From the NCBI GenBank assembly GCA_038087875.1, contig CM075996.1, forward strand, positions 6,698,001 to 6,762,000: DNA of 64,000 bases, written 5' to 3'. A model generated the notes under the pieces. The model was not told the origin of the DNA and did not search any database. It saw nothing but the letters and a program-made list of their open reading frames with translations. Shown here one piece after another: positions 3,335-60,181 of this stretch. The stretch's first letter is position 1; each line of letters opens with the position of its first letter. The stretch is from Malacoraja senta (lineage: Eukaryota). A program made the position numbers and the translations under genes.

Positions 3335-3664
3335 AGCCCTGTCCCACGGTACGAGTTCATTCCAAGAGCTCTCCCGAGTTTTTAAAAAATCAAACTCATG
3401 GTAAGCACGGAGAATGAACGTGGCGGGTACGTCGGAGCTCGGGGACGTCTCTTAGCGGCTCGTAACACTAACGGCAGGTACTCGGGAAGACTCGCTAACG
3501 GCAGGTAAGCACGGGAAGACTCGTGAAGATTTTTCAACATGTTGAAAAATGTCCACGAGATCCCCGAGTACCGACGAGTGGCCATTACCGTAAATCTCCG
3601 AGTTCGAATCAGGGCAAACTGGGGAGAGAGCTCTTGGAATGAACTCGTACCGTGGGACAGGGCT
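3335..3664. mobile_element. MITE of the same family, inserted into a CR1 3' fragment
   Basis: TIRs agccctgtcccacggtacgag / ctcgtaccgtgggacagggct; internal sequence similar to 1804-2121. Confidence 0.83.
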
Positions 3665-6336
3665 TTAAGGGGGTTAGGGTTTATGGGGAGGAGGCAGGAG
3701 AATGGGGTTGAGAGGGAATGACAGATCACCCATGATTGATGGAGTAGACTTGATGGGCTGAATGGCCTACTTCTGCTCCTAGAACTTATGAAGAGCTCGA
3801 GGCGAAATAAGACCAGGACCAACCAGTACAGTGATAAACCAGTCTAGACTCAATGGAGAAGAAACATCTTCACTGAGGGAGGCATATTGTAACGTCATAA
3901 GGCAATGGAATTTCAATAAAAATATATTCTGCTTTGAGATTGATAATTTTCTTGCGCACAAAGGAAATTGAAGGGATTTAGACAAGGAAACGAAGGTAAA
4001 CTAGAAAATTGGTTATGATCATAGAGCCATATAGCGTGGAAAAAGGTCTTTCGGCCCAACTTGCCAACATCGACCAACATGTCCCATCTACACTAGTCCC
4101 TCCTCCTGTGCTTGGACCATATCTCTCTAAACTGTACAACTCATCCCCCTTCTGTGGTGGGGTAGACTGAGACTGACTCCTGACTCCTCTCCCCCACCCC
4201 AATCTTTGCACATCCCCAATCCTTTCCACTCGTCACTTTAATTCCATGTTTCGTGTATCTTGTGTTATATGTTGGCAGATCAATTTCCCTCCTGGGATAA
4301 ATAAATGTTGTATCGTAAACCTGTCCTGTCCATGTACCTGTCTAAATGTTTCTTAAACATTGCGACAGTACCTGCCTCAACGACCTCCTCCGGCAGCTCA
4401 TTCCGTGCACCCACCATCACGTTTATGTGAAAAAGTTCCTATTAAATCTTTCCCCCCCCCCCCCCTCACCTTAAACCTATGTCCTCGATTCCCCAACTCT
4501 AGGCAAGAGATTCTCTGCATTTACCCAGTCTATTCCGCCCATGATTTTGTACACCTCTATAAGATCACCCCTCATTCTCCTGCGCTGCAAAGAATAGTCC
4601 CAGCTTGCTCAACTTCTCCCTATAACAACAACCTCGTAAATCTTCTCTGCACTCTTTCCAGCTTTACAACGTATTTCTTATCACATGATGCCCAGAACTG
4701 AACACAATACTCGAAATGTGACCTCACCAACGTCTTATATCATTGCACCATGGCCTCCCAACTCCTATACTGATCTTATTCAATGTAGCAGCCTAACGGT
4801 AGTGTTCTATAACCATCTGAGGTGTTCAACTCCCACTGAAGTCAATAGGATTGCTTTTAAAGACAAAAAACACAAAATGCAGAAGTAACTCAGCGGGTCA
4901 GGCAGCATCTCTAGAGAAATGGATTGGGTGACGTTTCGGGTCGGGACCCTTCTTTAGACTCGGTCTGAAATCTTGTGTTTGGGTCGGGGCCCTGAAGAAG
5001 GGTCGCGACCCAAAATGTCACCTGTCCATGTTCTCCAGAGATGCTGCCAGACCCAGTGATTTACTCCTGCACTTTGTTTTTATTTGTAGTTCCTTGTTTC
5101 TACAGTAAGATTGCTTATTTGGCCACCTCTTTCGTTGCATTATGCGTCACTGTGCTGTGTGTAAAGCAGGTGCTTCATTTAACTACGATACAACAATGGA
5201 TCATTTTCATAAATACTTCAATGGTTTTCTGGATGTCTTTTCGCAAAGATGTGAAAAATATCATGCACATATTCCATTCCTACTTAAAACAATTCTGGTG
5301 CCGTTCCTCATTATTGAAGTGCCTTTTTCTATTATAGAAGAAAAGTGTTTGATTCTTTTGAGAATCACTTTTTGAACAGAGCTGGACATTGCCTCCGCTG
5401 TTTCATCCAGTGAGTTGGAACCAGAGAGACCTGACAGAAAACAGAATCTAGTTAAATAATTTGGGACAGCACAGTGGAGCGGCAGTAGAGTTTGCTGCCT
5501 TGCAACGCCAGAGACCCTGGTTCGATCCTGACTGCGGATGCTGTCTGTACGGAGTTTGTACGTTCTCCCTGTGATTGTGTGGGTTTTCGCTGGGCGTTCT
5601 GGTTTCCTCCCACGTTCCAATGTCGTACGGGTTTGTAGGTTAATTCGCTTCTGTAAATTGTCCCTAGTGAGTAGGATAGAACTTGGTGGGCTGAAGGTCC
5701 TGTTTCCACCCTGTATCTCTAAACTAAACTCAACTAGTGTTCATGAAAGATGGAAGACTGCACAAAGCTATAATAACATTTTGGCACGAGGAACTGCAGA
5801 TGCTGGTTCACAAAAACAGATTAAAAAGTGCTGAAGTAACTCAGCTGGTCAGACAGCATCTCAGGAACACATAAATAGGTGACGTTTTGGATCGGAGACA
5901 CATTGCTCAACCAATGTAAAGCACTTTGGCCAACGAGAGTTGTTTTTTAAATGTGCTATATAAATAAAAGTGACTTGACTTGACTTGACTTCTTCAGACT
6001 GATGGTAGACAAAAATGCTGGAGAAACTCAGCGGGTGAGGCAGTATCTATGGAGAGAAGGAATAGGCGCCATTTCGGGTCAAGACCCTTCTTCAGGTCTC
6101 GACCGGAAACGTCGCCTATTCCTTCTCTCCATAGATGCTGCCCCACCCGCTGAGTTACTCCACCATTTTTGTCTACCTTCGATTTTTCCAGCATCTGCAG
6201 TTCTTTCTTAAACATTTCTTCAGACTGATTGTCTTTTAGTTTTAGTTTAGAGATACAGCGTGGATACAGACCTTTCGGCAACCGAGTCCACGCCAACCAG
6301 CGGTTACTCGTACACTCGGAGTGGGACAGGTATGTT

Positions 6337-11800: not shown

Positions 11801-12155
11801 TATGTGATCATGGCTGATCATCCCCAATCAGGACCCCGTTCCTGCCTCCTCCCCATATCCCCTGACTCCGCTATCTTGATCTATTGTAAGTATGGTATCA
11901 CCTATGTCTCGTCCAACTGTAACATGGCCTCCCAACGTCTGCACTCAATACTCTGACTGAAGAAGGTCAATGAGCTGAAAGCCATCTTCCAACTTCTACA
12001 CTCAGTACTCTTGACTGAAGAAGACCAATGTGCTGAAAGGCACCATGACCACGATGTCTACTTGTGAATGGTTGACTCTATGGACAAGGTTCTTGGCGTT
12101 TGTAGAGCACCTCCTGACATTTCTGCATTTTGTTTTTGTTTTTTGCTTCCCCCAG

Positions 12156-12350
12156 AGATGTTGACACCATCGCCCTCTCTAACGTGATGGGCTTCATCAT
12201 GAACATCCCCTCCAGCCTGTGCTGGGGCCCGGTGAAACTTCCGCTCAAACGGCAGCATTGGGTCGGTGTACGCGAGGTGGCGGGGATCTACTACAACCTC
12301 GACTCCAAGCTGAAGTTGCCCGATCAGATCGGCAACGAGGACGAGCTCCG
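12156..12350 (+). CDS. JOSD1: Josephin-1 internal coding exon (195 bp) carrying the catalytic His (RQHW) and Asp (NLDS) motifs
   Basis: Polypyrimidine tract + cccag acceptor and gtgagt donor. Translates [64 protein letters not shown](R), in phase with the previous exon. Confidence 0.97.
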
Positions 12351-13613
12351 GTGAGTGATCTGGCACCGTGCGGTTCAAGAGAGAGTTTATTGTCATGTGT
12401 CCCATTTAGGACAATGAAATTCTTGCTTTGCTTTAACACACCAGGACATAGTAGGCATGAATACAGAACAGATCGTGTGTCCATATACCATTGTATAAAA
12501 ATATACACACATGAATAAATAAACTGATAAAGTGCAAATAATAGATAATGGGCTTTAATGTTCAGAGTTTTGTCCGTGCCGAGTTGAATAGCCTGATGGC
12601 TGTGGGGGAGTAGCTATTCCTGAACCAGGTCGTTGCAGTCTTCAGGCTCCTGTACCTTCTACATGAAGGTTGTGGTGAGATGAGTGAGTGGCCAGGATGG
12701 TGTGGGTCCTTGATGATACTGCCAGCCTTTTTGAGGCAGCGACTGTGATAGATCCCCTCGATGGATGGGGGAGGTCAGAGCCGGTGATGCGTCGGAAGGG
12801 GAGTGGAAATGGTTGGTACCAGGAGATCCAGTAGGCCTCGGCGGACCGAGTGCGAGTGTTCACAAGTTCGAATCCCACCACGGCAGCTGGGGAATGAAAT
12901 TCAGTTCAATAAATAAATCTGGAATTCAGTCACTTCAATCTGGCATGATTGGGAAGGACTATATACTGCATGAAGGCTTTGCCAGTGATAGCCACACAAA
13001 CACAAAGTTTCTCACAATTTTTTCTAATTCACCAACACGGTTAGAATGGGCTGACTGGCTGCTCCGGTTTCCTCCCATATCCCAAAGATGTGCGGGTTTG
13101 TAGGGTTATTGACCCCTGTAAACAGTCCCCAGTGTGTCGGGAGTTAATGAGAAATTGGGAATAACATAGAACCAGAGCGATCGAGTGATCAATAATCACC
13201 ATGGACTCGGGTGGGCCAAAGGGCCTGTTTCCATGCTGTATCTCCAGACTATAGCCACATCTTATTTTAGTGATGTTTGGGAAGGAACTGCAGATACTGG
13301 TTTATACCGACCCAGATAGACACAAAATGCGAGAGTAACTCAGAGGGACAGGCAGCATCTCTGGGTGGCGTTTCTGGTCGTGGCCTTTCTTCAGAATGAG
13401 AGTCGGGGGAGAGGGAGACACAGAGAAATGGAAGGGTAAGGTGTGAAAAGGAAACTTTGAAGGGGATGAAGGTCATGGAAAATCCTTGGTGCAGTGATGG
13501 TTGCGATCATCAGGAGGCGCGTCTAACATAACATGATCTCCCTCGTCTACACGCATGTGATTGTGTGTGGTCTAATCCATGACCCCCTCCTCAAACTACT
13601 GGCCGAACCTTAA

Positions 13614-31409: not shown

Positions 31410-31445
<36 letters not shown>

Positions 31446-31549
31446 TCTGTGTCTCTTCTTTCTCTCTCTGTCTCCTCGCTCTGTCTCTCTCTCTCTCTCT
31501 CTCTGTCTCCTCTCTCTCTCTGTCTCTTCTCTGTCTCTCTCTCTGTCTC

Positions 31550-31580
<31 letters not shown>

Positions 31581-31611
31581 TCTCTCTCTCTCTCTCTCTC
31601 ATCTCTCTCCG

Positions 31612-31643
<32 letters not shown>

Positions 31644-31710
31644 TGTCTCTCTCTCTCTCTCTCTGTCTCTTCTATCTCTCTCTGGCTCTTCTCTCTCTCT
31701 CTCTCTCTCT

Positions 31711-31761
<51 letters not shown>

Positions 31762-31812
31762 GTCTCTCTCTCTGTCTGTCTCTCTCTCTCTCTCTCTTTC
31801 GCTCTCTCTCTA
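31410..31812 (+). repeat. Long imperfect (CT)n microsatellite
   Basis: About 400 bp of CT/CTGT repeats. Confidence 0.97.
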
Positions 31813-37853: not shown

Positions 37854-38053
37854 NNNNNNNNNNNNNNNNNNNNNNNNNNNNNNNNNNNNNNNNNNNNNNN
37901 NNNNNNNNNNNNNNNNNNNNNNNNNNNNNNNNNNNNNNNNNNNNNNNNNNNNNNNNNNNNNNNNNNNNNNNNNNNNNNNNNNNNNNNNNNNNNNNNNNNN
38001 NNNNNNNNNNNNNNNNNNNNNNNNNNNNNNNNNNNNNNNNNNNNNNNNNNNNN
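37854..38053. other. Assembly gap (exactly 200 N)
   Basis: Run of N. It cuts a SINE on the left and abuts a GAA microsatellite on the right. Confidence 1.
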
Positions 38054-38241
38054 AGAAGAAGAAGAAGAAGAAGAAGAAAAAGAAAAGAAGAAGAAGAAAG
38101 AAGAAAGAAGAGAAGAAGAAGAAGAAAGAAGAAGAAGAAGAAGAAGAAGAAGAAGAAGAAGAAGAAGAAGAAGAAGAAGAAGAGAAGAAGAAGAAGAAGA
38201 AGAAGAAGAAGAAGAGAAGGAAGAAGAAGAAGAAGTAGAAG

Positions 38242-38303
<62 letters not shown>

Positions 38304-38395
38304 GAAGAAGAAGAAGAAGAAGAAGAAGAAGAAGAAGAAGAAAGAAGAAGAAGAAGAAGAGAAGAAGAAGAAGAAGAAGAAGAAGAAGAAAGAAG
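38054..38395 (+). repeat. (GAA)n purine microsatellite
   Basis: Direct inspection; nearly pure GAA with occasional GTA/AAA interruptions. Confidence 0.98.
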
Positions 38396-38429
38396 ATCCC
38401 TTCTTATCCCTCCATCTCCCTCATCTCCC

Positions 38430-38764: not shown

Positions 38765-41700
38765 CCATATAACCATATAACCATTACAGCACGGAAACAG
38801 GCCATCTCGGCCCTTCAAGTCCGCGCTGAACACTTTTTTATTTTTTATTTTTACTTTCCCCTAGTCCCATCTACCTGCACTCAGACCATAACCCTCCATT
38901 CCTTTCCCGTCCATATACCCATCCAATCTATTTTTAAAGGATAAAATTGAACCTGCCTCCACCACTTCCACTGGAAGCTCATTCCACACAGCTACCACTC
39001 TCTGAGTAAAGAAGTTCCCCCTAATGTTCCCCCTAAACTTCTGTCCCTTAATTCTCAAGTCATGTCCCCTTGTTTGAATCTTCCCTACTCTCAATGGGAA
39101 AAGCTTATCCACGTCAACTCTGTCTAACCCGCTCATAATTTTAAAGACCTCTATCAAGTCCCTCTTAACCTTCTGCGCTCCAAAGAATAAAGACCTAACT
39201 TGTTCAACCTTTCTCTGTAACTTAGTTGCTGAAACCCAGGCAACATTCTAGTAAATCTCCTCTGTACTCTCTCTATTTTGTTGACATCCTTCCTATAATT
39301 AGGCGACCAAAAATTGTACTCCATACTCCAGAATTGGCCTCACCAATGCCTTGTACAATTTTAACATTACATCCCAACTTCTATATTCACTGCTCTGATT
39401 TATAAAGGCCAGCACACCAAAAGCTTTCTTTACCACCCTATCTACATGAGATTCCACCTTCAGGGAACTATGCACAGTTATTCCTAGATCCCTCTGTTCA
39501 ACTGCATTCCTCAATTCGCTACCATTTACCATGTATGTCCTATTTTGATTTGTCCTGCCGAGATGTAGCACCTCACATTTATCAGCATTAAACTTCCATC
39601 TGCCATCTTTCAGCCCACTCTTCCAAATGGCCTAAATCTCTCTGTAGACTTTGAAAAATCTACTTCATTATCCACAACACCACCTATCTTAGTATCATCT
39701 GCATACTTACTAATCCCAATTTTTCCACACCATCATCCAGATCATTGATGACATGACAAACAACAGTGGACCCAACACAGACCCCTGAGGCACCCCACTA
39801 GTCACCGGCCTCTAACCTGACAAACAGCCCACCCACCATTACTCTCTGGCATCCATTCAGCCACTGTTGAATCCATCTTGCTACTCACCATTAATACCCA
39901 ACAATTGAATCTTCTTAACCAACCTTCCATGAGGAACCTTGTCAAAGGCCTTACTGAAGTCCATATAGACAACATCCACTGCTTTACCCTCATCAATTTC
40001 CCTAGTAACCTCTTCAAAAAATTCCAAGAAGATTAGTCAAACATGACCTTCCAGGCACAAATCCATGTTGACTGTTCCTAATCAGACCCCTGCTTATCCA
40101 GATGCTTATATATATTAACTCTAAGTATCCTTTCCATTAATTTGCCCACCACTGACGTCAAACCAACAGGTCTATAATTGCTAGGTTTACTCTTAGAACC
40201 CCTTTTAAACAACGGAACAACATGCGCAGTACGCCAATCCTCCGGCACTATTCCCGTTTCTAATGACATTTGAAATATTTCTGTCATAGCCCCTGCTATT
40301 TCTACACTAACTCCCCTCAATGTCCTAGGGAATATCCTGTCAGGACCTAGAGACTTATCCGTTTTCATATTTTTTAAAAGTGTCTGCACCTCCTCTTCTT
40401 TGAATCTCATAGTTTCCATTGCTACTCTGCTTGTTTCCCTTACCTCACATAATTCCATATCCTTCTCCTTGGTGAATAGCGAAGAAAAGAAATTGTTCAA
40501 TATCTCCCCCATCTCTTTGGCTCTGCAGATAGCTGTCCACTCTGACTTTCTAATGGACCAATTTTATTCCTTGTTATCCTTTTGCTATTAATATAGCTGT
40601 AGAAACCCTTTGGATTTACTTTCACCTTACTTGCCCAAAGCAACCTCATATCTTCTTTTAGCTTTTCTAATTTCTTTCTTAATATTCTTTTTACATTCTT
40701 TATACTCCTCAAGCACCTCATTTACTCCATGCTGCCTATAATTATTGTAGATCTCTCTCTTTTTCCGAACCAAGTGTCCATTTCCCGTGAAAACCATGGC
40801 TCTTTCCAATTTTTACTATTTCCTTTCAACCGAACAGGTACATAAAGATTCTGTACTCTTAAAATGTCACCTTAAAAGTCCTCCATTTCTCTTCTACATC
40901 CTTCCCATAAAACAACATGTCCCAATTCACTCCTTTTAAATCCTTTCGCAACCCCTCAAAGTTAGCCTTTCTCCAATCAAAAATCTCAACCCTAGGTCCA
41001 GTCTGACCCTCTCCATAATTATATTGAAACTAATGGTATTGTGATCACTGGACCCGAAGTGCTCCCCGACGCTTACCTCCGCCACCTGCCCTGTCTCATT
41101 TCCTAACAGGAGGTCCAGCACTGCCCCTTCTCTAGTAGGTACCTCTATGTATTGCTGCAAAGAACTATCCTGCACACATTTTACAAACTCCAAACCATCC
41201 AGCCCTTTTACAGAATGTGTTTCCCAGTCCATGTGTGGAAAATTGAAATCTCCCACAATCACTACCTTGTGCTTACTACTAATATCTGCTATCTCCTTAC
41301 ATATTTGCTCTTCCAATTCTCGCTCTCCATTTGGCGGTCTATATACACCCCTATAAGTGTTGCTACACCTTTCCCATTTCTCAGTTCTACCCAAATAGCC
41401 TCCCTAGAACGAGCCCTCTAATCTATCCTGCCAAAGCACTGCTGTAATATCTTCCTTGACAAGCAATGCAACACCCCCACCTCTTGCCCCTCCAATTCTA
41501 TCACCCCTGAAGCAACGAAATCCTGGAATATTTAGTTTCCAATCACAGCCCTCCTGCAACCATGTCTCACTGATCCCCACAACATCATACTTCCAGGTGT
41601 CAATCCAGGCTCTAAGCTCATCCACCTTTCTTACAATGCTCCTAGCATTAAAATATACACATTTTAAGAAACCCACCACCACTTATTCTCTGTTTATTTT

Positions 41701-41980
41701 CTTTTTCTTCTTTTCTCCCCTACATTTTGGGTCCGAGTGCTTCCCTTCTCTGCCTCTGCCTCACACACTGTCTACTAGCTTTCTCTGTTTGAGTCCCTCC
41801 CACAACCGTTCTAGTTTAAATCTCCCCAGTAGCCTTTGCAAATCTCCCCGCCAGGATATTGGTCCCCCTCGGGTTCAAGTGCAACCCGTCCTTTCTGTAC
41901 AGGTCGCACCTTCCCCAAAAGAGGTCCCAATGATCCAGAAATTTGAATCCCTGCCCGCTGCACCAGTTCCTTCAGCCACG
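38765..41980 (-). mobile_element. Long, decayed CR1-clade LINE: ORF1 esterase remnant, ORF2 APE endonuclease and RT, microsatellite tail
   Basis: Minus-strand fragments: FLDHWDLFWGRCDLYRKDGLHLN (ORF1 esterase-like), LKCVYFNARSI...VVGISETWL and IVGDFN (endonuclease), NYRPVGLTSVVGKLME (RT), FFTQRVVAVWNELP (CR1 C-terminus); (GGTTATAT)n tail; multiple frameshifts. Confidence 0.92.
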
Positions 41981-42904
41981 CATTTATCCTTTTGCTCTAG
42001 TATTTTATTTAATTCACATGTTTAATCAATAATGTTTTATTATTAATGTTTAATGTTTTATGTGTCATTCTTAACTGTCACTGTTTGCCATGTTGTCACT
42101 TGTGGGCGGAGCACCAAGGCAAATTCCTTGTATGTGAATACTTGGCCAATAAACTTCATTCATCCATCTCCCTCCATCTTCCCCATCTCCCTCCTCCATA
42201 CATCTCTTCCATCTCTCCTTATCTCCTCACCTCGTACCATCTCTCCGTCCATCTCGTTCCCTCTCTCCACCTCTCCCGTCTCCTCAATCTTGCTCCAGTT
42301 TTTTTCCACCCCTTCCATCTCCCCTCCCCCCCATCTCTCTGCTTCTTCTCTCGCTTTCCCCATTCCCGTCTTTCCTCCCTCCACTCTCTCTCTCTCTCTC
42401 TCGCTCTCCCATCCCTTCCTCTCACTCACTCACTCTGATTGGGGGATGATCAGCCATGATCGCAATGAATGGCGGTGCTGGCTGGAAGGGCCAAATGGCC
42501 TCCTCCTGCACCTATTTTCTATGTTTCTATGTTTCTATGTTTTCCCCGCCTCTCCCCTCTCTCCACTTCCTCTCTGCTTCCCGGTGGTGCGGTCTGAAAG
42601 GAGGGTCTCGACCCGAAACGTCACCCATCCCTCCTCTCCAGAGATGCTGCCTGTCCCGCTGAGTTAACTCCAGTATTTAGTGTCCGTCTCCCTGTGGTGG
42701 AGGCGGATTATGACCCTCTGCTGCCCCCTCCTGGCCCTGCTCAGTCAGTCGAGCCGAAACACCTTGGACCTTCAGTGGAGGTGGAAGGGACTTGCAGGTG
42801 CTGGTTTACACCGAAGACAGGCACAAAATGCAGGAGCAACGCAGCGGGTCAGGCAGCATCTCCGGAGAAAAGGAATAGGTGACGTTTTGGGTCGAGACCC
42901 TTGA

Positions 42905-43893
42905 GAGTCAGAGTTGACTAATCTTCTGAATTTTTTTGAGGATGTAACAAGTAGAATGGATAAGGGAGAGCCAGTGGATGTGGTGTATCTGGACTTTCAA
43001 AAAGCCTTTGACAAGGTCCCACACAAGGGATTACTGTGCAAAATTAGAGCACATGGTATTGGGGGTAGGGTATTGACATGGATAGAGAACTGGTTGGCAG
43101 ACAGGAAGCAAAGAGTAGGAATTAACGGGTCCTTTTCAGAATGGCAGGCAGGGACTAGTGAGGTACTGCAAGGCTCGTTGCTGGGACCCCAGTTATTTAC
43201 AATATATATTAACGATTTAGACGAGGGAATTAAATGTGACAACTCCAAGTTTGCGGATGACACAAAGCTGGGTGGCAGTGTGAGCTGCAATGAAGATGCT
43301 ATGAGGCTGCAGGGTGACTTGGATAGGTTGGGTGAGTGGGCAGATGCAGGGCAGATGCCGTGTAATGTGGATAAATGTGAGGTTATCCACTTTGGTGGCA
43401 AGAACAGGAAGGCAGATTATTATCTGAATGGTGTCAGATTAGGAGAAGGGGAGGTGCAACGAGACCTGGGTGTGCTTGTACATCAGTCACTGAAAGTAAG
43501 CATGCAGGTACAGCAGGCAGTGAAGAAAGCCAATGGCATGTTGGCCTTCATTGCAAGAGGTTTTGAGTTTAGGAGCAAGGAGGCCCACTGCAGTTTTACA
43601 GGCCCTGGTGAGACCACACCTGGAGTAATGTGTGCAATTTTGGTCTCCTAATTTGAGGAAGGACATTCTTGCTATTGAGGGAGTGCAGCGTAGGTTCACC
43701 AGGTTAATTTCCGGGATGCGGGACTAACATATGACAAAGGAATGGGTTGATGGGGCTTGCTATCGCAGGAATTTAGAAAGATGAGAGGGGATCTTATAGA
43801 TACATTAAAAATTCTCAAAGGATTGGACAGGATAAAAGTAGGAAAAATGTTCCCGATGATGGGGGAGTCCAGAACCAGGGGTCACAGTTTGAG
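42905..43893 (+). mobile_element. CR1-clade LINE reverse transcriptase fragment
   Basis: ORF 42914-43651 with YLDFQKAFDKVPH, LQGSLLGPQLFTIYINDL and KFADDTK motifs. Confidence 0.93.
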
Positions 43894-52390: not shown

Positions 52391-52731
52391 CCAGAGAGCG
52401 CTAGTGTGCAGGGTGATCGCTGGTCGGCACGGACCCGTTGGGCCGAAGGGCTGTATCTTTAGAGTCTAGAGACGCCCTCTCGATTAGTGAGGGCTTCAAA
52501 GGTGCCGGGGGAGAGAGAAGGCAGGAGAATGGGGTTGAGAGGGAACGAGAGATCAGCTGTGAGTGAGTGGTCGGCACGGACTCGTTGGGGCGAAGGGCCT
52601 GTTTCCGCTCTGTTTGACTCTACGACGCGATGACTCTTGACCGGGGATTGGGGAGACAAGCGACGGCAGAGTCTCCCCCGGACGTAAATCTCTATAAGTC
52701 TAAAAGGACCAGACGGCTCACAGAACATTGC

Positions 52732-52737
52732 TTTATT
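52732..52737 (-). terminator. Polyadenylation signal AATAAA of the DSPP-like gene
   Basis: tttatt on + about 170 nt downstream of the exon D stop, followed on the minus strand by GU/U-containing sequence (gcaatgttctgtgagccgtctggtcctttt). Confidence 0.6.
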
Positions 52738-52903
52738 GCGTTTGACACAGATTGAAGAACCACACTGTCGCCAGCTCCCTGCTCGGACAGACATGAAGCG
52801 GGGATGAAGGCTTCTAAGTCGACACGATGATTGACGACTGATGACTATTGACAATTGCACACGGGAGCTGTGGAGGCCCCCACCCCGACAGGCCTCTGTC
52901 CCC

Positions 52904-52944
52904 TCAATTCTTGCCGCCCGACTGTTTGCCCTTTGTCTCTTTAC
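52904..52944 (-). CDS. Acidic DSPP-like protein, putative terminal coding exon D (GKETKGKQSGGKN*)
   Basis: Strong acceptor ttttccttcttttccag|, phase compatible with exon C, TGA at 52906-52904, followed by non-repeat sequence and AATAAA. Confidence 0.68.
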
Positions 52945-53579
52945 CTGGAAAAGAAGGAAAACCGGACGTTAGATCCCCGCTGAAGATTCACGTTCGCAAG
53001 TACATGAGAAGGGAGGGAGACGGAGCAAGAAGCAACAATAGACAATAGGTGCAGGAGTAGGCCATTCGGCCCTTCGAGCCAGCACCGCCATTCAACGTGA
53101 TCATGGCTGATCATCCCCAATCAGTACCCCGTTCCTGCCTTCTCCCCATATCCCCTGACTCCACTATCTTTAAGAGCCCTATCTAGCTCTCTCTTGAAAG
53201 TATCCAGAGAACCGGCCTCCACCGCCCTCTGAGGCAGAGAATTCCACAGACTCACCACTCTCTGTGAGAAAAAGTGTTTCCTCGTCTCCGTTCTAAATGG
53301 CTTACCCCTTATTCTTAAACTGTGACCCCTGGTTCTGGACTCCCCCAACATCAGCCTCAATGTCACCTTTCCCCCAGCTAACAATGATCTGTTCTGCATT
53401 TTACTTGATCTCATCCCCTTTGATGTCTCAGTCTCACACCTTTCCCTTCCTTATCTCTGTGCCTCCCTCTTCGATATGGATCACGAGCAGGCAGAGATTA
53501 GTTTAACTTGGCATCATGTTTAGCAGAGACATAGTGGGCTGAAGGGCCTGTTTCTGTGCTTACCACCTTAGTGCAGTTG

Positions 53580-53885
53580 AGTTTAGTTTGGAGAAACAGC
53601 ATGTAAACAGGCCCTTCGGCCCACCGTGTCCGTGCCGACCAGCGATCCCCGTACACTTGCACTATCCTACACACACTACGGACAATTTACAATTTACCAA
53701 GCCAATTCACCTGCAAACCTGCACGTCTTTGGAGTGTGGGAGGAAACCGGAGCACCTTGAGAAAACCCACGGGGTCACGGGGAGAACGTACAAACTCCGT
53801 TCAGACAAGCACCCGTAGTCAGGATCAAACCCGGGCCTCTGGTGCTGTAAGGCAGCAACTCTACCGCTGCGCCACCGTGCCGTCC
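53580..53885 (-). mobile_element. HE1/V-SINE-like SINE
   Basis: Reverse-complement match including head and tail. Confidence 0.85.
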
Positions 53886-54476
53886 ACCGCCTGTTTCCAT
53901 TATGTATTCGGTGTGTTTGGTGCGTGATTGGGTAAGAAAGGCAGCTGTTGTGTCTCTGAGTCCACAAAGTATTGAGTCCACAGTGTCATAGAGCACGGAT
54001 ACAGGCCCTTCGGCCCAACTTGCCCATGCTGACCAAGGGGCCCCATCTACACTAGTCCCACCTGCCCGCATTTGGCCCATATCCCTCTAAACCTATCCTA
54101 TCCGTGAATGCCTAGAGTCTTGTGGCCAGCGTAGGGGAATCAAGAACAAGAGGACATAGGTTTAAGGTGAGTGGAGAAATGGGAACTTGAAGGGCAACTT
54201 TTCCCACACAGAGGGTGGTGGATGTATGGAATGAGCTTCCAGAGGAGGTAGTTGGGGCAGGTGCTAGAACAATATTTAAAAGACATTTGGACAGGTACAC
54301 TGATAGGAAAGGTTTAGAGGGATATGGGTCAAACGCAGACAGCTGGGACTAGTGTAGATGGGGCATCTTGATCGGCATGGGCCGAAGGGCCTGTTTCTGT
54401 GCTAGATGGCTCCTGCATTGCTTTAAATTTATGCAATTATAAAATCAATGTTAAAAAACAGAAAATAGTACTCAAC

Positions 54477-55694
54477 CTGAATTACTACTGCCACTGGATC
54501 CACTGGAGTCACTGGAATCACTGGAGTCACTGGAATCACTGGAACCACTGGAGTCACTGGAATCACTGGAATCACTGGATCCACTGGAGTCACTGGAGCC
54601 ACTGGAGTCACTAGAGTCATTTGATTCGCTGCTTTCACTGGAGTCACTCGAATCATTTGAGTTACTGGAATCATTAGATTCACTGCTTTCACTTGAATCA
54701 CCAGAATCACTTGAATCTTTGCTATCACTGGAATCACTGCTGTCATCGGAACCACTGGAGTCACTGGAACTACTGGAGTCTTTGCTGTCACTGGAACTAC
54801 TGGAGTCACTAGAATCACTGGAGTCACTAGAATCACTGGAGTCTTTGCTGTCACTGGAGTCACTGGAACTACTGGAGTCTTTGCTGTCACTGGAATCGCT
54901 GGAGTCACTAGAATCACTGGAGTCACTAGAATCACTGGAGTCGCTAGAATCACTGGAGTCACTAGAATCACTGGAGTCACTAGAATCACTGGAGTCACTA
55001 GAATCACTGGAGTCACTAGAATCACTGGAGTCACTAGAATCACTGGAGTCTTTGCTGTCACTGGAGTCACTGGAACTACTAGAGTCTTTGCTGTCACTGG
55101 AATCACTAGAGTCACTGGAATCACTAGAGTCACTACTATCACTAGAGTCACTACTATCACTAGAGTCTCCTGAATCGCTAGAATCACTGGAATCACTGCT
55201 ATCACTGGAGTCGCTGCTATCACTAGAGTCTCCTGAATCACTGGAATCACTGCTATCACTGGAGTCACTGCTGTCACTAGAGTCTCCTGAATCACTGGAA
55301 TCACTAGAGTCACTGGAATCACTGGAGTCACTGCTATCACTAGAGTCACTGCTATCACTGGAGTCACTGCTATCACTAGAGTCTCCTGAATCACTGGAGT
55401 CACTGGAATCGCTGCTGTCACTGGAAACACTGGAATCACTTGAACTGCTGGAGTCACTGCTGTCGCTCGAATCGCTGGAGTCGCTCGAATCGCTGGAGTC
55501 ACTGGAATCGCTGGAGTCACTGGAATCGCTGGAGTCACTGGAATCGCTGGAGTCACTGGAATCGCTGGAGTCACTGGAATCGCTAGACCCACTGCTGTCA
55601 CTGGAATCACTGGAGTCACTGGAATCACTGGAGTCACTGGAGTCACTGGAATCACTGGAGTCACTGGAATCGCTGGAATCTGCCTGTGCTGTAC
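54477..55694 (-). CDS. Acidic DSPP-like protein, exon C (1218 bp, phase 1-1), phosphophoryn-like (Asp-Ser-Ser)n tract
   Basis: Acceptor ttctttaatattccag|, open frame [14 protein letters not shown]...SGSSGSSNS, putative donor CAG|gttgag. Repeat variants (GAC/GAT, TCC/TCT, AGT/AGC) are mostly synonymous in this frame. Confidence 0.85.
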
Positions 55695-56574
55695 CTGGAA
55701 TATTAAAGAACACAATTCAGATTTGGTTTGTGGACCATGAGTCTTGCACGGCCAGTGTAGATCTGCTGTGAGATGGGCCTGTGCTGATGGAACGTACACT
55801 CGATAGTGTGTGAGCTTCCGGAGCTGAGTCCCCGGCTAGTGTACCGGGGGGGTCGCTGGGCGGCGCAGAAACAACGGGCCAAAGGGCCTGTTACCGCGCT
55901 GTATCTCTAAACTAAACTATCATCACCTTTGTCGGAGAATCCCTCATGTCGAGAACCTTTCCTGAATGTCTTCCTGAGTATTCAATACAATACGACACGA
56001 CCCAATAGAACATTATTTATCCCAGGAGGGAAATTGATCTGCCAACATTCAGCTCATTGATACTGTCGGCAGAGTTGCTGCCTCCCAGCGCCAGAGACCC
56101 CGGTTCGATCCTGACTACGGGTGCTGTCTGTGTGGAGTTTGCACCTTCTCCCCCGTGACCTGCGTGGGTTTACTCCGGGTGCTCCGGTTTCCTCCCACAC
56201 TCCAAAGGCGTGCCGGTTGGTAGGTTAATTGGCCCTCTGTAAATTGGCCCTCGTGTGCAGTTGAATGGTTGCATCTTATAGGTGTTGACTTATAGATGGG
56301 GAGCAGAAATGGTTGAGAGTTGGATGAGTGTAAAAATGGGTGTTTGGATGGTCAGCATAGACTCGGTGGGACGGCCTGATTCCATGCTGTAATCTCTCTG
56401 TTATTCTAAGGAATCATTATCTCTTGTAAATCTCCCCTCCATTGGATCTCCATCCCTTCTCTCAGACCCCCGGGTGGCCTCTCTCTCGAGCGGTCCTATC
56501 CACGTTAAGACCTCGGTTGTGACCCATTTAGTTCATTACTTCTCGGGGCAGAATTAGGCCATTCCACCCATCAA

Positions 56575-56883
56575 GGGCGGCACGGTGGCGCAGCGGTAGA
56601 GTCGCTGCCTCACACCGCCAGAGACCTGGGTTCGATCCTGACTACGGGTGCTGTCTGTATGGAGTTTGTACGTTCTCCCCGTGACCTGCGTGGGTTTTCT
56701 CCGGGTGCTCCGGTTTCCTCCCACACTCCAAAGGCGTGCGGGTTTGTAGGTTAATTGGCTCGGGTTAAATTGTAAATTGTCCCCAATGTGCAGGGTAGGG
56801 TTAGTGTGCGGGGGTCGGTGGTCAGTGCGGACTTGGTGGGCCGAAGGGCCTCTTTCGGCGCTGTATCTCTAAACTAAACTAAA
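56575..56883 (+). mobile_element. Full-length tRNA-derived SINE (HE1/V-SINE-like), representative of more than 20 copies in the window
   Basis: tRNA-like head (A box gtggcgcagcgg, B box ggttcgatcc), V-domain-like core (ggagtttgtacgttctccccgtgacctgcgtgggttttctccgggtgctccggtttcctccc), CR1-like 3' end and (ACTAA)n tail. It splits a CR1 fragment at ccatcaag|tctactcc. Confidence 0.9.
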
Positions 56884-57149
56884 GTCTACTCCGCCATTCA
56901 ATCATGGCTGATCTATCTTTCTCTCTCAACCCCACTTTCCTGCCTTCTCCCCGTAACCCCTGACAACCATACTATTCAAGAATCTGTCAATGTCCGCCTT
57001 AAAAATATCCATTGACTAGGCCTCTACTGCTGTCTGTGGCAATGAGTTCCGAGATGGTGCACCAGACCTCCTCACTCGGGACTGGACTACTAGAGAGTCT
57101 TACAGAGTTTGGATTTGTTCATGATTGGAGCTTTAAAGAATCTAATTAG

Positions 57150-57940
57150 AGACAACTAGAATACAAAAACAGGGATGTAATGCTGAGGCTCTATAAGTTG
57201 TTTAAGAAAGAACTGCAGATGCTGGAAAATCGAAGGTAGACAAAAGTGCTGGAGAAACTCAGCGGGTGCAGCAGCATCTATGGAGCGAAGGAAATAGGCA
57301 ACGTTTCAGGCCATAACCCTTCTTCAGACTCTTCAAACCCTTCTTCAGACTCTATAAGGTGCTGGTCAGACCACATTTGGAGTATTGTGAGCTGTTTTGA
57401 TCCCCGGATCTGAGGAAGGATGTGCTGGCATTGGAGAGGGTCCAGAGGAGGTTTACGAGAATGATCCCGGAGATGAGTGGGTAAACACATGATGAGCGTT
57501 TGACGGCACTGGGCCTGTACTCGCTGGAGTTTAGAAGGATGAGGGGGGGGGGACCTCATTGAAACTTACGGAATAGTGAAAGGCCTGGATAGAGTGGATG
57601 TGGAGAGGATGTTTCCACTAGTGGGAGAGTCTAGGACCAGAGGTCACAGCCTCAGAATTAAAGGAGGTTCCTTTAGGAAAGAGATGAGGAGAAATTTATT
57701 TAGTCAAAGGGCGGTGAATCTGTGGAATTCATTGCCACAGTCGGTGGTGGAGGCCAAGTTAATGGATATATTTTACGGCAGAGATAGATAGATTCTTGAA
57801 TAGTATTGGTGTCAGCGGATGTGGGGAGAAGGCAGGAGAATGGGGTTGGGAGGGAAAGATAGATCAGCCATGTTTGAATGGCAGATTGGACTTGATGGGC
57901 CGAATGGTCTAATTCTGCTCCGAGAACATATGAACTTATA
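57150..57940 (+). mobile_element. CR1-clade LINE 3' fragment interrupted by a Penelope-derived repeat
   Basis: ORF 57576-57791 with CR1 motifs; the gaactgcagatgctgg...cccttcttcagac module is inserted at ~57200-57350. Confidence 0.82.
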
Positions 57941-57972
57941 AAGACGGGAACAAAGGGATCAAAATCACGTAC

Positions 57973-58443
57973 CTCCATTCCCATTGCCATTCCCGTCGCC
58001 ATTCCCGTCTCCATCGCCGGCACCATTGTCGATCCCGTTTCCATGCCCATTCCCATCTCCATTGTCCTGTCCGTTCCCATTGTCCTGCCCAAGGCCGTTG
58101 CCGTTCCCGTCTCCGTTCCCATTCCCATTGCCGTTCCAGTCTCCGTTCCCATTCCCATTGTCGATCCCGTTTCCATGCCCATTCCCATCTCCGTTGTCCT
58201 GTCCATTCCCATTGTCCTGCCCATGGCCGTTGCCATTCCAGTCTCCGTTCCCATTCCCATTGTCGATCCCGTTGGCGTTGCCGTTGCCGTTCCAGTCTCC
58301 GTTCCCATGGCCGGTCACAATGGCGTTCCCGTTCCCATTCCCATTCCCGTTGTGGTCTCCGTCGCCGCGTCCGTTCCCACTAGGCTCTGAAATAGAAGAG
58401 CGCGTGATGTTGAGATGGGAGCCGCCAGCGCGTTCCCCGTGGA
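57973..58443 (-). CDS. Acidic DSPP-like protein, exon B (471 bp, or 414 bp from the alternative acceptor at 58386; phase 1-1), Gly-Asn/Asp repeats with RGD
   Basis: Acceptors gtgtcttttccccag| (58443) and tcttctatttcag| (58386) are both in frame; donor G|gtacgt. Encodes ...EPSGNGRGDGDHNGNGNGN...GQDNGNGQDNGDGNGHGNGIDNG... Confidence 0.78.
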
Positions 58444-59941
58444 CTGGGGAAAAGACACGGAGCGCCGGAGTAACATGGCGGGCCCGGCAGCTTGGAAACA
58501 TAGACAAAAAAAAATAGACGCAGGAGTAGGCCTTTCGGCCCTTCGAGCCAGCACCGCCATTCAATATGATTATGGCTGATCATCCAGAATCAGTACCCCG
58601 TTCCTGCCTTCTCCCCATATCCCTTGATTCCGTTAGCCCCAAGAGCTAAATCTAACTCTCTCTTGAATACATCCGGTGAATTAGCCTCCATTGCCTTCTG
58701 TGGCAGAGAATTCCACAGATTCACAACTCTCTGGGTGAAAAGGTTTTTCCTCATCTCAATCCTTATTCTTAAACTGTGACCCCTGGTTCTGGACTCCCCC
58801 CAACATCGGGAACATTTTTCCTCCATCTAGCCTGTCCAATCCCTTAAGAATTTTATATGTTTCTACAAGATTACCCTCTCATCCTTCTAAATTCCAGTGA
58901 ATACAAGCCCAGTCGACCCGTTCTTTCATCTCCGGAGAAATTCCAAGATGGCGCACCAGACTTCCTGACTGGCGTCTGGTCTAATGGAGGGGGCTGAGAA
59001 TTGTCTTCTTCCAGGTTTGGGTTTGTGGGCGATTGGTGCTTTAAAAGAGCCAGCATTGATTTGAGCGGACGAGAATGCAAAAATGTAATGTAAATGGGAT
59101 GCAATGCTGAGGCTCTGTCAGGCGTTGGCCAGGCTGCATTTGGGACAATGCGGGCAGTTTTGGGCCCCGTATCTGCGGAAGGATGTCACTGCCGCTGGAG
59201 GGGGTCCAGGGGAGGTTTACGAGAACGATCCCAGGGATTTCTTCGAAAGTCGGGGACCGTTCAATCAGGCAGCCCAGAGAGGTGAAAGGTCGTCGGGACA
59301 GGAGCGCGGGGAAGGGGGAAGGTTTAGAGGGGTACGCGCCAAAGGTGGGCAAAGGTGGGGACACCTTCAGGGACGGTGTCTCGGTGGCACAGCGGTAGAG
59401 TTGCTGCCTCACAGCGCCAGAGTCCCGGGTTCGATCCTGACTACGGGTCCTGTCTGTACATTCTCCCTGTGACCGTGTAGGTTTTCTCCAAAGACATGCA
59501 GATTTGCAGGTTTAGTTGGCTCCTACAGAGTGTAACCTGTCCCCAGTGTGTGTAGGGTACGTGCTAGTGAACGGGGTGATCGCTGGTCGACGCGGCCTCG
59601 GTGGGCCGAAGGCACTGTTCCCGCGCTGTATCTCCGAAGTCTAAAGTCTAAAGTCTAAAGCTGGGGCACCTTGATAAGTCCATAAGTGATCGGGGCAGAA
59701 TTAGGCCATTCGGCCCATCAAGTCTACTCCGCCATTCAATCATGGCTGATCTATATTTCCCTCTCATCCCCATTCTCCTGCCTTCTCCCGTAACCCCTGA
59801 CACCCGTACTAATCAAGAATTTGTCAATCTCCGCCTTAACAATACCCACTGACTTGGCCTCCACAGCCGTCTGTGGCAATGAGTTCCACAGATTCACCGC
59901 CCTCTGGCGAAAGAAGATGAGGAGAGATTGCGGGCACTCAC

Positions 59942-60181
59942 CGTGGCTGTGACTATCGTCACTGTCGTCACTGTTGGTGTCACCGCTGTCGCTGCTGGCA
60001 TCACCGTATCCGTTTCCGTAGCCGTTGCCCTGGCCGTTGCCGTTGCCGTGGCCGTAACCGTTGCCGTATCTGTTGATGTAGCCGCGCCCGTGGCTGTCGC
60101 CGCTGTCACTGCCGTGCCCGTTCCACTCACCGCTGTCGCTGTCGCTGCCCGCACTGCGCCGCGCCAGGGCGTGCCCGATGT
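59942..60181 (-). CDS. Acidic DSPP-like protein, exon A (240 bp, phase 1-1), Ser/Asp- and Gly/Asn/Tyr-rich
   Basis: Acceptor ccccccctgtgattgcag| and donor G|gtgagt. Translates xIGHALARRSAGSDSDSGEWNGHGSDSGDSHGRGYINRYGNGYGHGNGNGQGNGYGNGYGDASSDSGDTNSDDSDDSHSH. Confidence 0.8.

Follow-up and report, generated by a model that had tools for sequence, protein, structure and literature searches.

A candidate analogue of dentin phosphoprotein outside the SCPP family: a five-exon gene model from the cartilaginous fish Malacoraja senta

Human dentin phosphoprotein (DPP, or phosphophoryn), encoded by DSPP, consists of 60% serine and 26% aspartate and contains 165 Asp-Ser-Ser (DSS) triplets. It has only eight primary Ser-x-Glu (SxE) sites, and its heavy phosphorylation needs Ser-x-Asp (SxD) sites or other kinases (PMC4707025). 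Synthetic (DSS)n peptides are reported to bind calcium phosphate with high affinity (PMC2798077). Here we describe a DSS-repeat gene on the minus strand of a 64,000-nucleotide stretch of the Malacoraja senta genome (GenBank assembly GCA_038087875.1, contig CM075996.1, positions 6,698,001 to 6,762,000; hereafter the window) and compare it with DPP and other described acidic matrix proteins. Judged from its sequence, this is probably a five-exon, lineage-restricted elasmobranch gene with a TATA promoter, whose product would be a secreted, intrinsically disordered polyanion.

DPP forms the C-terminal portion of DSPP, a SIBLING or acidic SCPP protein of bony vertebrates. In toothed bony vertebrates, DSPP derived from DMP1 (PMC4232355). 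The SCPP genes, including the elasmobranch scpp, lie beside sparc-L, whose 5' structure they copied, with the introns that follow the signal peptide in phase 0 (PMC9122587). The elasmobranch scpp (Leurs et al. 2022) is arranged tail-to-tail with sparc-L and has its first three introns in phase 0; its product is rich in Tyr and in Asp/Glu and contains PDYXXPXX repeats as well as SxE sites (PMC9122587). With this gene published in 2022, the premise of the initial annotation of the locus, namely that chondrichthyans lack or nearly lack SCPPs, is dated. Some chondrichthyan spp2.Like members without a recognisable cystatin domain are expressed in denticles and the dental lamina (PMC13188829), and a 2024 review states that the identity of chondrichthyan enamel-matrix-like proteins still awaits confirmation (PMC12120383). 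Among molluscs, nacrein-like shell proteins contain Gly-X-Asn repeats (PMC4066178).

The initial annotation had proposed four minus-strand exons within the window. Their borders were confirmed exactly, with AG/GT splice sites and phase-1 junctions throughout (Table 1), and the acceptors of exons 2-5 are all preceded by a pyrimidine tract and CAG or TAG. When joined, these four exons form a single open frame of 655 amino acids (636 with the short acceptor of exon 3) with one terminal stop. The AATAAA signal sits 165 nt past the stop codon, and cleavage would be expected at about 52715-52705. Exon 2 encodes Ser/Asp runs and a GNGYG/His-rich block. Exon 3 starts with a unique N-terminal part (HGERAGGSHLNITRSSISEPS), followed by a single Arg-Gly-Asp (RGD) motif and by GN, GD and GDW repeats, in which a 132-nt unit is repeated about 2.2 times. 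An alternative acceptor, located 57 nt downstream and in frame, would make the first segment of this exon optional; the NITR of that segment is the only N-x-T sequon outside the DSS exon.

The N-terminus was missing from that proposal, which had pointed to a signal-peptide exon still to be sought upstream. Such an exon was located 6.9 kb upstream of exon 2, just beyond the window (positions there are given as window equivalents or under our locus label L007). Exon 1 lies in unique DNA and encodes a classical signal peptide, with a Kozak A at -3 and no ATG further upstream; a TATAAAAG (TATA) box at L007 3362-3355 precedes the first ATG by 193-200 nt. The exon was found by a crude same-strand scan of the 44 kb upstream for an ATG combined with a hydrophobic core and a donor in phase 1. 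The scan returned three matches, of which exon 1 was the one in unique DNA. The candidate at 62221-62152 was rejected as part of a repeated element with another copy at 3385-3843, and the remaining one as wholly self-repeated DNA. As a control, both strands of 144 kb (288 kb in all) were scanned with the donor restricted to GTRAG. This produced 20 candidate rows, four of them in phase 1, and exon 1 was the only one both in phase 1 and unrepeated. A RUNX-type motif, GACCACA, is present at L007 3445-3451 on the minus strand (window-equivalent ~67448), ~85 nt before the TATA box; although suggestively placed, it stays within chance, as the 10-kb locus has three matches to this motif versus 5.7 expected from shuffles.

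The complete model comprises five exons over ~14.6 kb with a coding sequence of 2028 nt, encoding 675 amino acids (656 with the short acceptor). The ATG frame of exon 1 continues through every downstream exon to one stop, and no frameshift or stop interrupts the 2028 nt.

Table 1. Exons of the DSS gene and of its Josephin-domain neighbour. Positions are those of the window unless labelled otherwise; a slash marks the splice junction.
Feature	Position	Strand	Content	Acceptor	Donor
Exon 1	window-equivalent ~67330-67105 (L007 ~3330-3105)	-	ATG at L007 3162 (67162); encodes MKVLLFLALLGLLTVGRCR plus 1 nt		GTGAGT (phase 1)
Exon 2	59942..60181	-	240 nt, phase 1 to phase 1; starts with IGHALARRSAG	...TGATTGCAG/AC	CACG/GTGAGT
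Exon 3	57973..58443	-	471 nt; 414 nt via alternative acceptor at 58386	...TTTTCCCCAG/TC; at 58386 ...TCTATTTCAG/AG	GGAG/GTACGT
Optional segment of exon 3	58387..58443	-	57 nt, in frame; present only with the upstream acceptor
Exon 4 (DSS exon)	54477..55694	-	1218 nt, 405 aa, (DSS)n	...AATATTCCAG/GT	TCAG/GTTGAGT
Exon 5, coding part	52904..52944	-	split Gly codon, then KETKGKQSGGKN, stop TGA at 52906-52904	...CTTTTCCAG/GT
3' untranslated region	52710..52903	-	AATAAA at 52737-52732, then GT-rich stretch
Josephin-domain deubiquitinase exons	L013:7656-7877 and window 12118-12351	+	PF02099 positions 1-36 and 97-137

The order of domains given in the initial annotation holds in the complete product: the signal peptide and a short basic/His segment are followed by the Ser/Asp and Gly-Tyr-His-Asn block (with GNGYG), the Gly-Asn/Gly-Asp repeats with the RGD, the 405-residue (Asp-Ser-Ser)n tract and a 12-residue Lys-rich tail (KETKGKQSGGKN). 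The segments that are unique to the locus are the signal peptide, IGHALARRSAG, HLNITRSSISEPSG and the Lys-rich tail. The 675 residues include 41% Ser, 21.5% Asp, 14% Gly and 8% Asn, with one Cys and one Pro, and carry a net charge of -132 before modification. There are 104 DSS triplets, with 18 as the longest perfect run, alongside 119 SxD, 134 Ser-x-Ser and 5 SxE sites, four N-x-S/T sequons, and several DSGD and SGS sites; the single RGD, at residue 125, compares with about 0.5 expected by chance in such a composition, by our estimate. All of the DSS triplets belong to the DSS exon, where 257 Ser (63%) and 116 Asp (29%) are encoded by a repeat with a period of 9 nt and 132 copies, interrupted by DSG, DSK and SSSSS variants. 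Both the signal-peptide exon and this composition support the earlier proposal of a very acidic, Ser/Asp-rich protein, predicted to be secreted, that is encoded by a coherent multi-exon model.

Several of these properties are shared with DPP, and the composition of the DSS exon (63% Ser, 29% Asp) is close to that of human DPP (60% and 26%; PMC4707025). In both cases a tract of several hundred residues of (Asp-Ser-Ser)n is encoded by 9-nt repeats within one large exon, the protein is secreted (as predicted here), SxE sites are few and SxD sites many, an RGD lies upstream of the tract and the N-terminal part is non-repetitive. The long (DSS)n tract, the Ser and Asp shares and the signal peptide thus place the product with dentin phosphoprotein as a kind, not as a lineage. 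As a whole, the locus is best explained as encoding a convergent, mineral-binding analogue of phosphophoryn that is neither an orthologue nor a member of the SCPP/SIBLING family, a reading to which we give about an even chance. Taking together all readings that imply a real gene, we consider it very likely that the locus encodes a secreted DSS-rich polyanion.

The locus is neither a transposon nor a satellite. Exon 2 has one full-length match in the 1.94-Gb genome and exon 3 has one full match. Although 57% of the 144-kb neighbourhood is self-repeated, exon 1, exon 2 and the last exon reside in unrepeated blocks, the last of them within a block of unique DNA at 52627-53030. The introns are filled with pieces of short and long interspersed elements (SINE and LINE), whereas the exons are free of transposon insertions. 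Abundant in the introns are copies of the LINE 3' tail (...NLWNSLPQRAVEA...), together with those of a tRNA-derived SINE. A genome-wide search with a D-[WSN][WSN] pattern at 3.67 repeats gave 79 matches, 60 of them inside the DSS exon. Among the other 19, there are 17 tandem 9-mers that do not read DSS and two overlapping matches on contig C5 that would. Within the limits of this pattern search, exon 4 is the only long DSS tract of the genome. The two matches on C5 correspond to a short perfect (GATTCCTCA)n array at G000:C5:11846251-11846291 on the minus strand, the only other pattern match that reads DSS.

Several points weigh against the interpretation of the locus as a gene for a phosphophoryn analogue. 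The DSS exon is open in two of the three sense frames and in one antisense frame, and the joined exons contain a further frame with a single stop; because several other frames in such repeats are also open, the open frame by itself is weak evidence. The 132-nt copies in the GN exon differ at 6 synonymous versus 7 non-synonymous codons, which gives no clear codon signal, and the 6.9-kb intron 1 may contain extra small exons. No orthologue or relative was found in the protein libraries or metagenome contigs, in searches that handle low-complexity queries poorly. The product contains just 5 SxE sites, and phosphorylation at SxD sites is unexplained even for DPP (PMC4707025). Finally, it is composition alone that suggests a role in mineralised tissue. 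The open frames across the repeats, the nearly open second frame, the lack of relatives and the GN exon without synonymous excess would also fit a locus that is not a functional gene, that is, 9-nt and 6-nt minisatellites between chance splice-like sites, or a young, untranscribed or decaying locus.

The codons of the DSS exon argue against such an origin. The entropy drop from codons to residues is 1.63 bits in the DSS frame versus 0.21-1.17 bits in the other five frames. All six Ser codons are used (AGT 109, TCC 74, AGC 36, TCT 25, TCA 10, TCG 3), and Ser is retained by 74 of the 106 codons that deviate from the four consensus codons, whereas a single-mutation simulation predicts 13-19 Ser-retaining codons and never gave more than 32 over 2000 runs. 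This synonymous excess is overstated by an unknown factor because amplification of repeat units copies variants, so that the 106 codons are not independent events, which is a further point against our interpretation. Despite the overstated size, the direction is clear, and the DSS frame looks constrained at the codon level. The gene model stands above chance through the unique TATA/ATG/signal-peptide exon, which sets the DSS frame, the synonymous excess and the single-copy exons. The promoter and signal-peptide exon, the four phase-1 junctions, the stop, the AATAAA signal and the synonymous excess all agree on one frame, the exons have escaped the insertions that fill the introns, and the frame stays intact over its whole length. 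In view of this agreement, a non-functional locus is an unlikely explanation.

A second alternative places the gene within the SCPP/SIBLING family proper, as an orthologue or paralogue either of DSPP/DMP1 or of the sparc-L-derived elasmobranch scpp. The DSS tract, the RGD, the acidic composition, the signal peptide and the presence of five exons would all be consistent with such an origin. However, all four introns of the DSS gene are in phase 1, and the ATG and the signal peptide are in the first exon. In SCPP genes, Kawasaki and Weiss reportedly found an untranslated exon 1, with the signal peptide encoded by exon 2. The phase-1 introns also differ from the phase-0 introns of the SCPP genes, including the elasmobranch scpp (PMC9122587). 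The DSS gene further differs from DSPP by a small additional 3' coding exon past the DSS exon, and its product has GN/GY repeats in the N-terminal part in place of a DSP-like region.

The gene neighbourhood is also unlike that of SCPP genes. The tail-side neighbour of the DSS gene is a Josephin-domain gene of at least 34 kb, arranged tail-to-tail with it (Table 1). We take this gene to be JOSD1-like; the sole PDB match of its second identified exon is Josephin-2 (6pgv), and ATXN3 was rejected as its identity as the PDB match was to Josephin-2 only. For the Pfam scan of the 144-kb neighbourhood we used 333 of the 340 listed open reading frames (ORFs; at least 55 aa and less than 30% self-repeat), after dropping seven that crossed locus borders. 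No SPARC-type domain was found in these 333 ORFs, exons shorter than 55 aa being outside the scan. Apart from the two Josephin exons, the matches obtained were to transposon or retroelement domains, namely DUF5641, Exo_endo_phos (in two ORFs) and, below threshold, Gag_p24_C; a single further match below threshold, to Glyco_hydro_81, we regard as spurious. Elsewhere in the genome, SPARC_Ca_bdg (PF10591) matches occur on contigs C1, C14 and C4740, away from the DSS gene. Their sequences look like exons of what are presumably SPOCK and SMOC genes, not of SPARC or SPARC-L, and sparc-L was not located in this genome through them. The synteny comparison therefore shows a different neighbour and neither sparc-L nor an SCPP cluster over the 144 kb, which falls short of excluding the family fully.

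The comparison with the elasmobranch scpp leads to the same result. Both genes encode secreted acidic proteins of sharks or rays with candidate sites for secretory kinases, but the DSS gene has neither the sparc-L neighbour nor the phase-0 introns, and its product lacks the Tyr-richness and the PDYXXPXX repeats and has few SxE sites. DSPP itself arose from DMP1 within toothed bony vertebrates (PMC4232355), and the single RGD is close to chance level, by the estimate given above. The DSS gene therefore does not appear to belong to the SCPP/DSPP family, because of its phase-1 introns, the signal peptide in exon 1, the JOSD-type neighbour and the absence of a detected homologue. Membership in this family is disfavoured and, in our view, very improbable. 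The likeness to phosphophoryn and DSPP that was claimed in the initial annotation stands with respect to composition, whereas the implied membership in the SIBLING/SCPP family is not supported.

Searches for relatives were made exon by exon in a library of 5.8 billion proteins that includes NCBI vertebrate models (e.g., a skink protein). Against longer proteins, exon 3 (GN) gave just 4 low-complexity matches among 8000 candidates, and exon 2 gave none among 904; the DSS exon gave 3 weak matches against proteins of similar length. A HMMER search of 1.84 billion representatives returned 22 matches, all with E >= 1e-6, GN-rich and apparently unrelated, and none of them over the unique N-terminal part. 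There were no relatives in an ESM Atlas search and 2 low-complexity matches among metagenome contigs. Both word-index searches and the bias filters of HMMER deal badly with low-complexity queries of the DSS or GN type. In Pfam, no family matched the exons at its cut-off, and the matches listed at E <= 1 include neither DMP1 nor osteopontin. The search of the genome for the osteopontin, amelogenin and Spp-24 families gave no matches and, lacking a positive control, is uninformative. We found no description of a DSPP-like or DSS-repeat gene from chondrichthyans in the full-text searches made and no gene model in the protein libraries searched; the available text of the supplements of PMC13188829 does not contain the terms 'sialophosphoprotein', 'dspp' or 'dentin matrix'.

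The chondrichthyan spp2 and spp2.Like proteins resemble the DSS protein in being candidate secreted phosphoproteins of cartilaginous fish with Ser-rich regions (PMC13188829). In contrast, the DSS protein has one Cys over its whole length and no match to Spp-24 (PF07448) at E <= 1, and its gene has a JOSD-type neighbour. In nacrein-like proteins, Gly-X-Asn repeats interrupt an alpha-carbonic-anhydrase domain. The DSS protein has just the repeat, to which its GN/GD units are similar; there is neither a carbonic-anhydrase match in Pfam nor any homology, and the analogy is one of composition only. Starmaker-type proteins of teleost otoliths are disordered, Ser/Asp-rich and secreted, and the DSS protein is of a similar design, which again is an analogy of composition only.

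A third alternative accepts the gene and assigns its product a role unrelated to calcium minerals. A real secreted polyanion might serve as part of the secretions of the skin or the oviducal gland, in the hydration of egg cases or mucus, as a buffer of metals or other cations, or as a proteoglycan core via acidic Ser-Gly sites. All of the evidence for the reality of the gene applies to this explanation as well; in addition, the N-terminal Gly/Tyr/His-rich block resembles keratin-associated matrix proteins weakly and below threshold (PF11759, E 0.19), and several DSGD and SGS sites occur. Against this, long DSS tracts of this composition are best known from dentin phosphoprotein (PMC4707025), DSS peptides bind calcium phosphate (PMC2798077) and GN repeats occur in a shell-matrix protein (PMC4066178); the two resemblances agree in direction, although these are analogies only. 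We consider a non-mineral role rather unlikely.

If the product is instead a mineral-binding analogue of phosphophoryn, it would most likely act as DPP does. The gene would be transcribed in mineralising tissue, and Golgi kinases, of the Fam20 type or others, would phosphorylate the DSS tract of the secreted protein at many sites along the secretory pathway. The phosphorylated tract would be very densely occupied by carboxylate and phosphate groups, which could bind Ca2+ and surfaces formed by calcium phosphate or by calcium carbonate; the bound protein may then govern how crystals nucleate and grow in dentine, enameloid, tesserae or otoconia. With respect to the kinases, exons of a Fam20-domain kinase gene are located at G000:C20:9018703-9023430 on the plus strand; this contig of 10.8 Mb also carries the DSS gene, at a distance of 2.3 Mb. 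A second Fam20-domain gene is found on C5.

Additional features were identified in the neighbourhood of the DSS gene. A (TC)n microsatellite of ~400 bp (window 31410-31811) leaves several frames without stops, and the long Leu/Ser and Arg/Glu ORFs that result there are spurious. A 200-N assembly gap at 37854-38053 adjoins an (AGA)n tract of ~340 bp (window 37854-38396). LINE remains extend over window positions 39300-43650, with Exo_endo_phos ORFs at 40939-41682 on the minus strand and a reverse-transcriptase-like ORF at 42905-43648 on the plus strand. On the gene's opposite side, a unique stretch of ~600 bp (L010 6023-6664, window-equivalent ~100,000) is open in five of six frames and has no Pfam match. 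This stretch, GC-rich as judged from its translations, may be a CpG-island promoter or the first exon of the next upstream gene.

The host had been assigned to the cartilaginous fishes from repeats, and a comparison of its acetylcholinesterase supports this assignment, in particular an elasmobranch host; a LINE ORF of the genome also maps to chordate clusters in the ESM Atlas. The gene (L032, G000:C998:247032-251468) has a single large exon of ~500 codons that scores 962-989 bits against PDB chains 2w6c, 1ea5, 1acj and others, 780 bits against 4qww and ~690 bits against further chains. By eye, it is ~83% identical to 2w6c, signal peptide included. We take 2w6c, 1ea5, 1acj and the others of their group to be Torpedo acetylcholinesterase, 4qww to be a snake enzyme and the ~690-bit chains to be those of mouse and human.

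Cartilaginous fishes form dentine, enameloid and mineralised cartilage, yet DSPP, DMP1 and similar acidic phosphoproteins have not been found there, and the published chondrichthyan candidates that we found are one sparc-L-derived scpp and an expansion of spp2. A phosphophoryn-type DSS protein that is encoded outside the SCPP locus by a gene of different structure would be a concrete, testable candidate for the missing component. We tentatively propose, as a possibility that falls short of an even chance, that elasmobranchs evolved their own phosphophoryn, in which a gene unrelated to the SCPP family, itself derived from sparc-L, combined Gly-Asn repeats like those of nacrein with a DSS tract of 400 residues and supplied the missing phosphoprotein of dentine, enameloid or tesserae. 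If the convergent interpretation is true, the locus would provide an example of the convergent evolution of a low-complexity biomineralisation domain, and the key polyanion of vertebrate dentine mineralisation would have evolved at least twice.

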